From Promethearchaeota archaeon (GTDB lineage Archaea > Asgardarchaeota > Heimdallarchaeia > Hodarchaeales > Hodarchaeaceae), in assembly GCA_048938105.1 (NCBI GenBank), contig JBHLMN010000007.1, forward strand, positions 128,001-192,000: a DNA stretch of 64,000 nucleotides. Direction: 5' to 3'. Positions 39,778 through 43,119 of this stretch are shown here, one piece after another (within the stretch, counting starts at the first letter, position 1; each line of letters starts with the position of its first letter). The notes beneath the pieces are model-generated. The model was not told the DNA's origin, searched no databases, and saw nothing but the letters and a program-made list of their open reading frames with translations. Both the position numbers and the translations under genes were made by a program.

Positions 39778-40641
39778 TTGTCTTTGACAGACGTAGTAGA
39801 TTTGTCATTTGTCCAGATATACTTACTTAACATTTTGATTTCTTATTCAACAGGAGCTATTCGATTTACGTTATTAAATCAAATCAATGATGTTTTCTTT
39901 CATGAAAAACCTTTAGCACCATCTACGTTCTATAATAGTTTACGTAGACTTGAGAAAAAAGGGTTTGTTTCTTTTCAAGAGGATGACAAGAGTTCAAAAG
40001 GAAAAAGTGTCCAGGCGACACTCTTAGGTAAAATAGCTATCCAGATGATCACTCAAATGATGATTTTCAACATTTGGGACATAGGAACGATTTTAAAAGA
40101 GATTGTTCCAGAAGTAATTGCAAAAACTGAATTAAAACCAGTTCATTCTTCTCTTCTAATCCATTTTGATGAATTATTAAATGTGGAATTATTTGATGAA
40201 TTCTATTATCCATACTCTGAAGAACTTTATGTCTTAGCTAGTGATGAATATTATGATAGATACTTAAAACGAGGAATAACAGAGGTACACCAATCAAAAT
40301 TCCGAAATAAGAAGATTCGTGAACCTAATAACTTTTTTGATGCTACATTCTTAGTACGTTACCGAAAAACGGATAAATTCGGGATCTCAGAAATTGAAAT
40401 GCTTCAGGAAGCATTAAGGGTTACAAAGCCAAAAGGAAAGTTAATAATCATATCAATTAATGACATTCCTCAATCGAATCACTTTATTCCAGACGCCATT
40501 GGACAATTTGTAATTCAAAATCCATTCTTTTTTTCAATAAATGAACAAGATTTAAGATCGGATTTTAATGAGGTAGGTATTCAAAACCTGAATGTGCATA
40601 ATATCAATGGAATGATAGTTGCATGGGTAAATATTTTGTGA
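39778..40641 (+). CDS. PadR-like winged-helix regulator fused to a methyltransferase-like domain
   Basis: PSTFYNSLRRLEKKGFV...TLLGK wHTH; NNFFDATF and LQEALRVTKPKGKLII. Confidence 0.7.
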   Translation: MSLTDVVDLSFVQIYLLNILISYSTGAIRFTLLNQINDVFFHEKPLAPSTFYNSLRRLEKKGFVSFQEDDKSSKGKSVQATLLGKIAIQMITQMMIFNIWDIGTILKEIVPEVIAKTELKPVHSSLLIHFDELLNVELFDEFYYPYSEELYVLASDEYYDRYLKRGITEVHQSKFRNKKIREPNNFFDATFLVRYRKTDKFGISEIEMLQEALRVTKPKGKLIIISINDIPQSNHFIPDAIGQFVIQNPFFFSINEQDLRSDFNEVGIQNLNVHNINGMIVAWVNIL

Positions 40642-40773
40642 AAAAAAACTGGTGAATGCTCCATCATTGAATGATTAAAGTCCCTTGAATTTTTTTACCT
40701 AATGTCCACTGTCAATAGACATATTCCAACTTGGTAACGCTGTTCAAAGGAAAACAGAGATAGTAGAATTGAT

Positions 40774-41037
40774 TTATTCAACTTTTCCAGCAGCAAGTCG
40801 AATATCGGAGTCTTTTATGGTTTTACGCCCCGAATGACCAGCAATTTCCACTGCATAGCGAGCAATTTCTAGGCCTCTATTAACGATGATTTGATTCAGA
40901 CTTGTAATAGCATCAGCTGAAACCCGAAAAGCTCCCGCATCTCTTATGAGTCTCTCAACACGAGCTCCTGCAAAACTTGCTTCTCCTTTTGCTGGCTTTG
41001 GTGCTGCTTTCTTCGCAGGTGTTTTCTTTTTTGCCAT
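40774..41037 (-). CDS. Archaeal histone (HMf fold) with ~19-aa Lys-rich N-terminal tail
   Basis: RLIRDAGAFRVSADA...IAGHSGRKTIKDSDIRLA aligns with HMfB (RIIKDAGAERVSDDA...LARHAGRKTIKAEDIELA). Confidence 0.95.
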   Translation of the reverse strand: MAKKKTPAKKAAPKPAKGEASFAGARVERLIRDAGAFRVSADAITSLNQIIVNRGLEIARYAVEIAGHSGRKTIKDSDIRLAAGKVE

Positions 41038-41099
41038 TTTAAATCACAATTTCTCACTATATGAAGTCTTGAAAGACTTAAAAATAAAATTAATCACCC

Positions 41100-41107
41100 T
41101 TTATAAA
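41100..41107 (-). promoter_or_regulatory. TATA box (TTTATAAA) of the histone gene with purine-rich BRE-like upstream sequence
   Basis: Minus strand GGATAAATGTTTATAAAGG about 62 nt upstream of the histone ATG. Confidence 0.55.
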
Positions 41108-41236
41108 CATTTATCCAGTATTAGCACGAAAGAAGAATATATTGAAAAATTAGAGTTCTTTCGTATAGATTATATTCTTTTTACAATTTTCCCATAGTAA
41201 TCTTACAAGGATCGATGAATGAAATCTTATTTTCCA

Positions 41237-42505
41237 TTAAAATGGTTCAAACGTAAAAGGGGATTCTTTGGTCTTAAAAAGCTCATTTAGACTATTAAGA
41301 TATGTCTTATTAGTTATTTGAACTAATCCATATTCGTAAAGCTTTTTTAGATCAATAGTTCCCATTACTAGACTAGAAAACCGCGCAATGTCAATGGATA
41401 ATTCTACATTATAATCTTCTCCAACTGGAATCACTTTTGGTCTTCCTTTTTGAAAATGGATTATTAGTTGACTATCGTTTTCAGGTATGAATGAATCAAT
41501 GATGGTTAACTTCAATTTGATACTCTGGTTTCCAAAATTATGATCAGATAATAAATTAAAGAATTTTGAAGAATTAATTACTCTGTACATAATCCCTACT
41601 CCTTGAATGTTACTCTCCTGAAAGATATGAAAGATATTTTCATTACCTCGGCTTCTTGGTTCCATCAAAAAATGATGAAAATAATGATCGTGAGTATTAT
41701 AGCGAATTCGATGAACTTGATCTTGTTGAGTAGCAAGAAATGATAACAAGCCCAAGAAAGCTTGTGGTGATTCATAAATAAATTCCATAATGTGTAGATC
41801 ATGTTGAAGCCAACTCCCACCTTCCACACGTTTCAAACGAAAGGCTAAATAACCTACTAAAATATTATTTTCCCAATAGCCAATAATTTTCATTCTAAGC
41901 AATTGTTTAAAGGCATCACTTTCCTCTTCCCGTAAAATCATACCATGTGTTGTTGTTGCATATCTGTTAAAGCATTCTGAAATGGCTTTTATATCTTTAA
42001 TAGATAAATAGGATATATTTCCTTTTGTGGTTAATCGTAATGCTTTTGGTTCAAAACTGTATTGATTCATCTTATTTCCTAAACCATAACCCATCCTCGC
42101 ATAAAAATCTGGTGCAAATGGATATAAACATGTTAAACAATACCCACGATCGTAATAGTGTTTATGAGCAAATATCATTAGATCTTTAGCAACATGTTCT
42201 TTCTTATGTAGAAGATCAACGCACACTTCCCCTATTCCACCACATTTAACAATATTCTTTGAATATAAGTTCATTTCAAAATCGTATAGAATCATTCCTC
42301 CCAACAATTTGCTATCTTGAAAACATCCATAAAAATTCACTTTAGTATTTTCATCATTAGTTTTAATCCATTCAGCTTTTTTCTCTCTTTTCATATCTTC
42401 CGTAAAATTATCTGGTACTTGTCCAGGATATGCTCCTGCCCAAATATCTAAAAAAAAGTTAAAATCATTGTCAACTAACTTTCTAATTGTTCTTTTTTCT
42501 TTCAT
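41237..42505 (-). CDS. eis: Eis-family acetyltransferase (double GNAT + SCP2-like domain)
   Basis: 422 aa; GGIGEVCVDLLHKKEHV, LYPF..DFYARMGYG, GIMYRVIN, C-terminal SCP2-like region ending in Phe (EPF). Confidence 0.85.
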   Translation of the reverse strand: MKEKRTIRKLVDNDFNFFLDIWAGAYPGQVPDNFTEDMKREKKAEWIKTNDENTKVNFYGCFQDSKLLGGMILYDFEMNLYSKNIVKCGGIGEVCVDLLHKKEHVAKDLMIFAHKHYYDRGYCLTCLYPFAPDFYARMGYGLGNKMNQYSFEPKALRLTTKGNISYLSIKDIKAISECFNRYATTTHGMILREEESDAFKQLLRMKIIGYWENNILVGYLAFRLKRVEGGSWLQHDLHIMEFIYESPQAFLGLLSFLATQQDQVHRIRYNTHDHYFHHFLMEPRSRGNENIFHIFQESNIQGVGIMYRVINSSKFFNLLSDHNFGNQSIKLKLTIIDSFIPENDSQLIIHFQKGRPKVIPVGEDYNVELSIDIARFSSLVMGTIDLKKLYEYGLVQITNKTYLNSLNELFKTKESPFTFEPF

Positions 42506-42522: not shown

Positions 42523-43119
42523 TTAACCTTGTAATGATGAGAATGTCACTCCTTTTTCCGTTATCATGATTATAGGGCTACTTATAGCTGCTGATAGTGT
42601 TATAACAAGTGTTTTTTCTGTCTGCTCCTTCTGGAAATGATGAACGTGTCCAGCTACTAGAATTGCTGGATGATATTGGTCAACAAGCTTTCTTATTTTC
42701 TTATTACCACAATGGGGAATCATTTTTGTATGAAATGGATCACTACACTGGTCTGCTAAACCGAATGCCGGTTCATGAGAAACTAAGACATCAAGATTTT
42801 TTGGAATAGAAACTGGTTCACATTGATAATCAATACCGAAGAATCGTAATCCAGTTAATTCCTTGAGTTTATCTAGATGATTGTTTAACCAGAAGAAATT
42901 TGGTATTCTCTCCAGTTTTTGATGGAGTTTTTCTTTCCCCCAGGTTTCTTTATTTCCTTTTATGCTAAAAAATGGCAAAGGGAATTCAAAATTATTGTGC
43001 GTTGGATATTGGTGATAGTTAAAGATATCTCCACAGCAAATACAAAGGTCAACTGTCTCTGCGATTTGAAATAACCTGGTGAAATCTCCCTCAAAATCAG
43101 TACTAAGAAGAATTTTCAT
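42523..43119 (-). CDS. Calcineurin-like metallophosphoesterase
   Basis: STDFEG, CGDIFN, KGNKE, VSHEP, AGHVH; stop is 17 bp before eis. Confidence 0.8.
   Translation of the reverse strand: MKILLSTDFEGDFTRLFQIAETVDLCICCGDIFNYHQYPTHNNFEFPLPFFSIKGNKETWGKEKLHQKLERIPNFFWLNNHLDKLKELTGLRFFGIDYQCEPVSIPKNLDVLVSHEPAFGLADQCSDPFHTKMIPHCGNKKIRKLVDQYHPAILVAGHVHHFQKEQTEKTLVITLSAAISSPIIMITEKGVTFSSLQG

Follow-up and report, generated by a model that had tools for sequence, protein, structure and literature searches.

A predicted tailed histone of Hodarchaeales and the Eis-type acetyltransferase gene beside it

The DNA considered here, referred to below as the window, is a stretch of 64,000 nucleotides from a Promethearchaeota archaeon of the family Hodarchaeaceae (GenBank assembly GCA_048938105.1, contig JBHLMN010000007.1, positions 128,001 to 192,000). 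Its reverse strand carries a complete gene for a small histone whose fold is preceded by a Lys/Ala/Pro-rich N-terminal tail, with an Eis-type GNAT acetyltransferase gene as its upstream neighbour (Table 1). The initial annotation had proposed an archaeal histone whose N-terminal tail, rich in Lys, Ala and Pro, resembles those of eukaryotes, and had noted tailed forms in a few lineages, Heimdallarchaeia among them; this identity was borne out by Pfam, by solved structures in the PDB, by a structure model, and by the finding of tails in 67 of 102 relatives. Judged by its sequence features, the protein is a B-type (tailed) nucleosomal histone of Hodarchaeales: its tail is 21 amino acids (aa) long (published range for the type, 16-32), contains 33% Lys (7/21; published, >30%), and has an isoelectric point (pI) of 10.4 (published, about 10.5). 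The class has been described since 2018 and was studied experimentally in 2025-2026, and the gene in the window is a clear further member.

Table 1. Features of the histone locus, in coordinates of the window
Feature	Position	Strand	Remarks
Tailed histone, complete coding sequence	40774..41037	-	87 aa, 9.2 kDa, pI 10.4; stop codon TAA at 40776-40774
N-terminal tail, MAKKKTPAKKAAPKPAKGEAS	40975..41037	-	codons 1-21; 7 Lys; net charge +6; predicted disordered
Histone fold	40777..40974	-	codons 22-87 (66 residues)
Archaeal TATA box, TTTATAAAG	41099..41107	-	follows an A-rich stretch resembling a transcription factor B recognition element (BRE); invariant in an alignment of 8 orthologous loci
Shine-Dalgarno-like element, GTGAT	41043..41047	-	5 nt before the ATG, overlapping an in-frame TGA; alignment of 8 orthologs
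T-rich run, TGTTTTCCTTT	40746..40756	-	18-28 nt past the stop codon; read directly
Eis-type GNAT acetyltransferase	41237..42505	-	422 aa; upstream neighbour, 199 bp from the histone gene; candidate tail writer
Calcineurin-like metallophosphoesterase	42523..43119	-	198 aa; 17 bp upstream of the Eis gene
Open reading frame convergent to the histone	39778..40641	+	287 aa; no Pfam match
Open reading frame overlapping the tail	40946..41197	+	83 aa; rejected as a shadow frame lying opposite the histone gene

The reading frame itself constrains where translation can begin. Among ATG, GTG and TTG codons, the next one after the ATG of codon 1 is a GTG at codon 63, within helix α2, and the earliest near-cognate codon (ATA) is codon 31, already within α1; on the other side, an in-frame TGA lies three codons 5′ of the ATG (41046-41044). 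Because the ATG is the sole start before codon 63 and an in-frame stop lies upstream of it, the tail, as read from the sequence, has to be translated. The remark in the initial annotation that no alternative ATG lies before the fold therefore holds in a wider form, extending to all three start codons and as far as codon 63. Two outcomes that it had named as contrary to its reading, translation starting downstream of the tail and absence of the tail from close orthologs, were checked and did not occur: there is a single possible ATG with a stop upstream, and the tail is kept. In the orthologs, the open frame reaches back just 2-7 codons beyond the ATG, and the tail remains in frame despite many insertions and deletions.

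Signals for expression surround this frame. The TATA box TTTATAAAG begins 70 nt 5′ of the ATG, within the 200-bp upstream spacer, and the usual archaeal distance from TATA box to start would place the beginning of transcription near 41077, with a 5′ untranslated region of about 40 nt. The start codon is part of a conserved (T/C)TAAAATG at the eight orthologous loci, and the Shine-Dalgarno-like element five nucleotides before it is GTGAT in six of the eight; the remaining two read GGGAT or GGGAA. We take GTGAT to be complementary to the 3′ end of archaeal 16S rRNA (..GAUCACCUCC). Past the stop codon, the T-rich run is plausibly an archaeal oligo-T terminator.

The composition of the tail is not a product of chance. 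The 5.85-Mb genome contains 7,436 ATG-initiated open reading frames not shorter than 60 aa, and in only two of these do the first 21 residues include at least 7 Lys and at least 15 Lys, Ala and Pro combined. At 44% G+C, the DNA that encodes the tail stands above the 35% of the genome, so AT drift does not account for the Ala and Pro codons of the tail. The seven Lys within residues 1-19 and the motifs TPAK (residues 6-9), PAKK (7-10) and KAAP (10-13), all listed in the initial annotation, were confirmed. The sole other N-terminus in the genome with a comparable content of Lys, Ala and Pro (MPAKKKRRPAKKKAPPKKKKT) belongs to a 436-aa GTPase with a GHVDHGKST motif (G000:C11, + strand, offset 89124), which from its sequence looks like aIF2-gamma; an N-terminal extension of this Lys-rich kind on a subunit of an archaeal initiation factor is reminiscent of the K-boxes in eukaryotic eIF2.

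Pfam family PF00808 (CBFD_NFYB_HMF) matches residues 24-82 of the histone (E = 2.5e-11; 44 bits vs. a cut-off of 21.4). Its best solved relatives are the cryo-electron microscopy chains of PDB entries 9QV5, 9QV6 and 9QV7 (E = 8e-22 over residues 20-85), followed by HMfB (E = 1.6e-11), HMfA and HPhA at about 1e-11. An AlphaFold2 model built on 56 relatives placed helices at residues 24-33, 41-69 and 76-85 with a predicted local distance difference test score (pLDDT) of about 90, while residues 6-18 of the tail, which occupies the 21 aa before F22, scored below 50. The DNA-contact residues are present, with R29 and R38 at the positions of HMfB R10 and R19, and R71-K72-T73 together with D78 matching the RKTxxxxD motif of loop 2; in the 56-sequence alignment R38, R71, T73, D78 and G35 are invariant, and K72 occurs in at least 90% of the sequences. 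With an offset of 19, I65, H68, D78 and L81 align with the tetramer-interface residues L46, H49, D59 and L62 of HMfB, and G35, the glycine of the stacking loop (A34-G35-A36), with the G16 position. The signatures that the initial annotation had listed for the fold (A34-G35-A36, R38-V39, H68, R71-K72-T73 and D78) were all found. Y61, E64 and H68 correspond to Y44, E47 and H51 of HHoB, which stabilise an ‘open’ nucleosome (Ranawat et al., 2025, bioRxiv 10.1101/2025.05.24.653377). By alignment, the protein has a canonical archaeal histone fold with all the DNA-contact and tetramer-interface residues of HMfB and HHoB, and with H68, D78, I65 and L81 kept, tetramerisation should be intact.

Searching 5.8 billion proteins yielded 104 relatives, whose sources are named as Hodarchaeota/Hodarchaeales, Heimdallarchaeota or ‘Promethearchaeota’. 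When a tail is taken to mean 10 aa or more ahead of the conserved Phe, 67 of the 102 single-domain relatives have one; these tails have a median of 24 aa with 33% Lys and are nearly without Arg save in one subfamily. Fifty of the 67 begin with M-[A/P]-K-K-K, beyond which nothing is conserved in sequence, and tail length ranges from 10 to about 36 aa. Full-length tailed orthologs occur in 13 further species of the same GTDB genus, at 63-87% identity by the search’s own figures. The subfamily to which the protein belongs is marked by the MAKKK start, a His at the tetramer interface, and no Arg cluster at the tail base. In a maximum-likelihood tree built from the fold region (62 columns), the presence of a tail requires about six changes, with two of these imposed by supported branches, and clusters strongly relative to shuffled labels, although the resolution is too low to tell a single origin of the tail from several; one apparently tailed row (P0089) was a mis-called start.

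The host genome has about nine histone genes. Besides the long-tailed form described here, one has a short MTKKPKRKAG tail, five encode untailed proteins of 67 aa, one encodes a doublet, and one is a divergent copy. This complement resembles the eight untailed and two tailed histones of Hodarchaeales LC3 (Ranawat et al., 2025). Several of these genes, which lie outside the window, have features of their own. Two of the untailed 67-aa genes stand in tandem about 630 bp apart (G000:C6:161250-162084). The doublet, a 142-aa protein of two fused folds (G000:C14:223646-224074), is kept across the genus. The divergent histone-fold gene (G000:C9:79397-79585) has no ATG before its fold and lies about 3 kb from an HDAC-family (PF00850) gene (G000:C9:82562-83419).

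The ability to form hypernucleosomes was assessed by the criteria of Henneman et al. (2018, PMC6136690), namely the tetramer interface, a small residue in the stacking loop, and stacking bonds between gyres. The description of the protein as hypernucleosome-competent in the initial annotation stands in part: the tetramer interface (I65, H68, D78, L81) and G35 are kept, but the tailed forms in general appear to have lost their charged stacking residues. The HMfB stacking pairs K30-E61, E34-R65 and R48-D14 become Q49-R80, N53-G84 and G67-D33, with S46, Q49, N53, G67 and G84 all uncharged and at most one polar pair remaining; by this mapping two or three stacking pairs appear to be lost. Similarly, K29, E32 and D36 of HHoB, which were changed to Ala in ‘mut2’ (Ranawat et al., 2025) and were taken as stacking residues in the present comparison, are replaced by S46, Q49 and N53. 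Position 46 (HHoB K29) is Ala, Ser or Gly in 60 of 67 tailed relatives and Arg or Lys in 31 of 35 untailed ones, and position 67 (HMfB R48) is Arg in 12 of 67 tailed relatives and Arg or Lys in 34 of 35 untailed ones, counts that come from related groups and do not represent independent events. Most tailed forms have Ser, Ala or Gly for Arg or Lys at position 46, and Gly or Asn for Arg at position 67, and retain Y61, E64 and H68. Asn replaces the His of the tetramer interface (H49N) in 41 of the 67, whereas the protein studied here keeps His68. Tailed histones may thus lean to open or loosely stacked assemblies. The loss of two basic stacking residues alongside a kept Tyr/Glu/His triad would make the link between tails and open chromatin a testable one, a point beyond the literature found.

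The upstream neighbour has the Eis-type architecture of Acetyltransf_9 (PF13527), Acetyltransf_17 (PF17668) and SCP2_2 (PF13530), bears a distant resemblance to 2I00, 3N7Z and 3SXN, PDB structures of the Eis family, and ends in a Phe (F422) that is invariant in 13 Eis-type orthologs. The ortholog is single-copy and was found in 15 of the 23 genomes of the order, all of them in the same genus as the window. In seven of the 12 genomes in which both genes were found, and on one further metagenome contig, it is adjacent to the tailed histone gene and co-directional with it; the two are adjacent and convergent on two further Hodarchaeales contigs, and in G020 the arrangement falls on short contigs. 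Where the two genes are adjacent, the genes further out vary between several of the loci. Outside Hodarchaeales, the closest relatives of the enzyme, at 38-45% identity, come from bacteria (Chloroflexota, Bacillota, WOR-3 and others), together with a few other archaea, and this distribution suggests that the gene was horizontally transferred. No histone gene adjoined the Eis relative at any of 69 loci outside Hodarchaeales, from bacteria and a few other archaea.

An enzyme of this type with a DNA-packaging substrate has a precedent in mycobacteria. According to the account of Ghosh et al. (2016) given in PMC6135046, the Eis enzyme of M. tuberculosis acetylates MtHU, an HU protein, and weakens its binding to DNA; the three-domain architecture and the conserved C-terminal Phe of that enzyme recur in the neighbour described here. 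The Eis-type GNAT may be the enzyme that writes acetyl groups on the tail, a candidacy that we put forward tentatively. It is also possible, if somewhat doubtful, that the tailed histone and its Eis-type neighbour make up a dedicated substrate-writer cassette in one lineage of Hodarchaeales. If true, the cassette would parallel the Eis/HU pair of mycobacteria, and its enzyme would join the small GNAT LoHAT2, reported for Lokiarchaeum, as a second and unrelated writer of histone tails. We found no paper connecting Eis-type enzymes with archaeal histones, and the linked acetyltransferase is a concrete writer candidate beyond the literature found. A complex prediction for the Eis-like enzyme and the histone returned no answer (score 0.00) and is evidence in neither direction.

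Other genes at the locus recur more sporadically. The metallophosphoesterase gene keeps its arrangement in four genomes (G003, G009, G011 and G014), is convergent in G012, and is absent at the other Eis-histone loci; its linkage is looser than that between the Eis and histone genes. On the far side of the histone gene, the convergent 287-aa open reading frame occupies the corresponding position in G003 (91% identity) and G011 (74%). GCA_011364965.1, a more distant genome, has the tailed histone, a 207-aa HTH_5 protein and the same FtsX/ABC transporter pair side by side.

The best explanation overall, and one that we consider probable, is that the gene encodes a B-type tailed nucleosomal histone with a tail that contacts DNA and can be modified. 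The histone would dimerise through its fold and wrap about 30 bp per dimer, like its untailed paralogs. Met1 would be removed, as position 2 is Ala, and two tails of charge +6 would exit the particle beside the DNA and add electrostatic contacts in cis or in trans. They would also present Lys3-5, Lys9-10, Lys14 and Lys17 to lysine acetyl- and methyltransferases and to deacetylases, by which their charge could be tuned, the adjacent Eis-type GNAT being the best candidate for an acetyl writer. The protein would probably favour looser or open assemblies over tight hypernucleosomes, or mix into those formed by about six untailed paralogs. That the tail is modifiable is plausible by homology with the tail post-translational modifications (PTMs) of HMpB from Hodarchaeales and HLoB.2 from Lokiarchaeum. 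The host genome has four SIR2-family and three HDAC-family genes; a SET-domain methyltransferase was not found in it with PF00856, although lysine methyltransferases may still be present.

Several observations weigh against this explanation. The PTM data come from relatives, one of which, HMpB.1, belongs to a different tailed subfamily (about 55% fold identity, Arg-rich tail base), while the one from Lokiarchaeum is non-orthologous, with a fold about 27% identical, and the protein in the window is known from its sequence alone. In molecular dynamics simulations, PTMs had little effect on hypernucleosome stacking (Cho et al., 2026, bioRxiv 10.64898/2026.07.02.735847). The stacking argument is a mapping between sequences only, with the dependence among counts already mentioned. 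As for the writer, the Eis-histone pairing is confined to part of one genus, the two genes are both present but unlinked in four genomes of one subclade, and two genomes (G001 and G016) have an Eis ortholog without a long-tailed histone found by this query. The bacterial relatives of the enzyme, at 38-45% identity, further indicate that its family is not histone-specific.

The tail could instead be purely architectural, a polycation whose clamping or bridging of DNA increases compaction, without regulated modification, as in the H1 C-terminal domain or mycobacterial HupB. A net charge of +6, and tails of such variable length in which only M[AP]KKK is conserved, are what a charge-only function would lead one to expect; tails have been modelled as reaching DNA in cis or in trans (Henneman et al., 2018), and the minimal effect of PTMs on stacking in simulations (Cho et al., 2026) is in keeping with it. 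However, site-specific methylation and acetylation, enriched over the unmodified peptide, were found in two Asgard lineages, with a writer and an eraser active in vitro (Cho et al., 2026). The near-invariant M[AP]KKK, shared with Lokiarchaeum HLoB despite unrelated folds, suggests enzyme recognition over charge alone, and an acetyltransferase gene is genomically linked; we consider the architectural account unlikely. A regulated tail could also be one that undergoes proline-directed Ser/Thr phosphorylation at T6, like H1 by cyclin-dependent kinases, and the initial annotation had matched TPAK to the S/T-P-x-K motif of linker histones. The motif is present at residues 6-9, but the comparison was not sustained: S/T-P-x-K occurs in four of 67 tails vs. 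6.1 +/- 2.2 expected in shuffled tails, and the nearest orthologs (P0002 and P0005) lack it, having TAKK, or KAAP without Thr. In addition, no phosphorylation was detected on archaeal histones by Cho et al. (2026), and the protein folds as a histone does and lacks the winged helix seen in H1. Such regulation is very improbable, and TPAK is best read as a by-product of a tail composition rich in Thr, Pro, Ala and Lys.

The stacking positions admit a different emphasis, in which the tailed variant mainly acts as a boundary or ‘capstone’-type subunit that limits or opens the hypernucleosomes of untailed paralogs, and the tail is secondary. Most tailed forms have lost the basic stacking residues of positions 46 and 67, 41 of the 67 have H49N, and tailed histones tend to weakened interfaces (Henneman et al., 2018), all of which is consistent with such a role. 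Conversely, the protein in the window retains H68, D78, I65 and L81, with which tetramerisation is expected to be intact, and a primarily capping function seems improbable. It might also be argued, from a gene known in its host organism only through its sequence, that the tail is an annotation artefact, either because the true start lies downstream or because the frame is unexpressed. This we find scarcely credible: no start codon falls within codons 2-62, a stop lies three codons upstream, the promoter and Shine-Dalgarno-like element are conserved, the tail stays in frame across orthologs that differ by indels, and peptides spanning the equivalent N-termini were seen in relatives. A B-type histone with a modifiable tail thus remains the explanation that we prefer.

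Tailed histones of this kind have been described in several Asgard lineages. Eukaryote-like tails were reported on the histones of Heimdall LC_3 and modelled as passing through the DNA minor grooves (Henneman et al., 2018), and long, disordered, cationic tails were later found to be frequent on Asgard nucleosomal histones (Schwab et al., 2024, PMC11390915). LC_3 histone HA, among the first described, likewise has a eukaryote-like Lys-rich N-terminal tail; it carries arginines at the exit point (R17-R19) and H49N, which weakens the tetramer, whereas the protein in the window has neither. HHoB of Hodarchaeales LC3 (9QV5/9QV6/9QV7) is identical to it in the DNA-binding and tetramer residues and in the Y44/E47/H51 triad, but is untailed.

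The closest experimental counterparts come from cultured Lokiarchaeum and Hodarchaeales, in which untailed A-type histones occur with tailed B-type histones, HLoB and HMpB, respectively (Cho et al., 2026). The tailed forms lose Met1 and carry methylation and acetylation on tail Lys residues; in vitro, tail acetylation is written by the GNAT LoHAT2, which is predicted to engage Lys3, and erased by the sirtuin LoSIR2b (Cho et al., 2026). HMpB.1 and HMpB.2 of Ca. Margulisarchaeum peptidiphilum HC1 (Hodarchaeales) share order and fold subfamily with the protein in the window (..AGAFRVS.., ..YAVEIA..S.R.T), as well as a Lys-rich disordered tail of about 20-30 aa, a pI near 10.5, and a low copy number beside untailed paralogs. 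HMpB.1, from the pair in which PTMs were measured, differs in its MSRKKK start, in the Arg-rich sequence KKRRTSRSR at the base of its tail, and in having Asn in place of H49, where the protein in the window has a MAKKK start, a neutral or acidic hinge (GEAS), and His68; HMpB.1-like database relatives (P0093-P0103) are 52-57% identical to it over the aligned part. HLoB.2 of Ca. Lokiarchaeum ossiferum B35 is similar in tail length and composition and has the identical first ten residues, MAKKKTPAKK, although its fold is of the Loki-type subfamily, about 27% identical (BLASTP E = 0.19) and non-orthologous. Its peptide AKKKTPAKK, equal to residues 2-10 of the protein in the window, was seen without Met1 and with the last Lys methylated, and K9-acetylated HLoB.2 peptides were deacetylated by LoSIR2b in vitro (Cho et al., 2026). 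An origin of the window in Lokiarchaeum, which this identical peptide might bring to mind, was rejected, as the fold is of Hodarchaeales type and the genomes nearest to it bear the names Hodarchaeota or Heimdallarchaeota. The identity of ten residues with a non-orthologous Lokiarchaeum histone is a point beyond the literature found, and the M-A-K-K-K start, which recurs in tailed histones of Asgard archaea that are not orthologs, suggests that they have a signal for recognition or processing in common; loss of Met is expected where position 2 is Ala or Pro.

The tails of eukaryotic H4 and H2B and the Lys-Ala-Pro tails of H1 and HupB are likewise disordered, Lys-rich polycations on DNA-packaging proteins, and their acetylation lowers DNA affinity. 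Eukaryotic histone tails are longer, at 32-64 aa vs. 21 aa here, and share no alignable sequence homology with the tail in the window; those of H1 and HupB are C-terminal and sit on unrelated folds, whereas this one is N-terminal. The gene in the window adds a clean member to the B-type family of Hodarchaeales, in a subfamily unlike the two forms studied experimentally, and the tailed histones of Asgard archaea are the best current candidates for precursors of the modifiable histone tails of eukaryotes.

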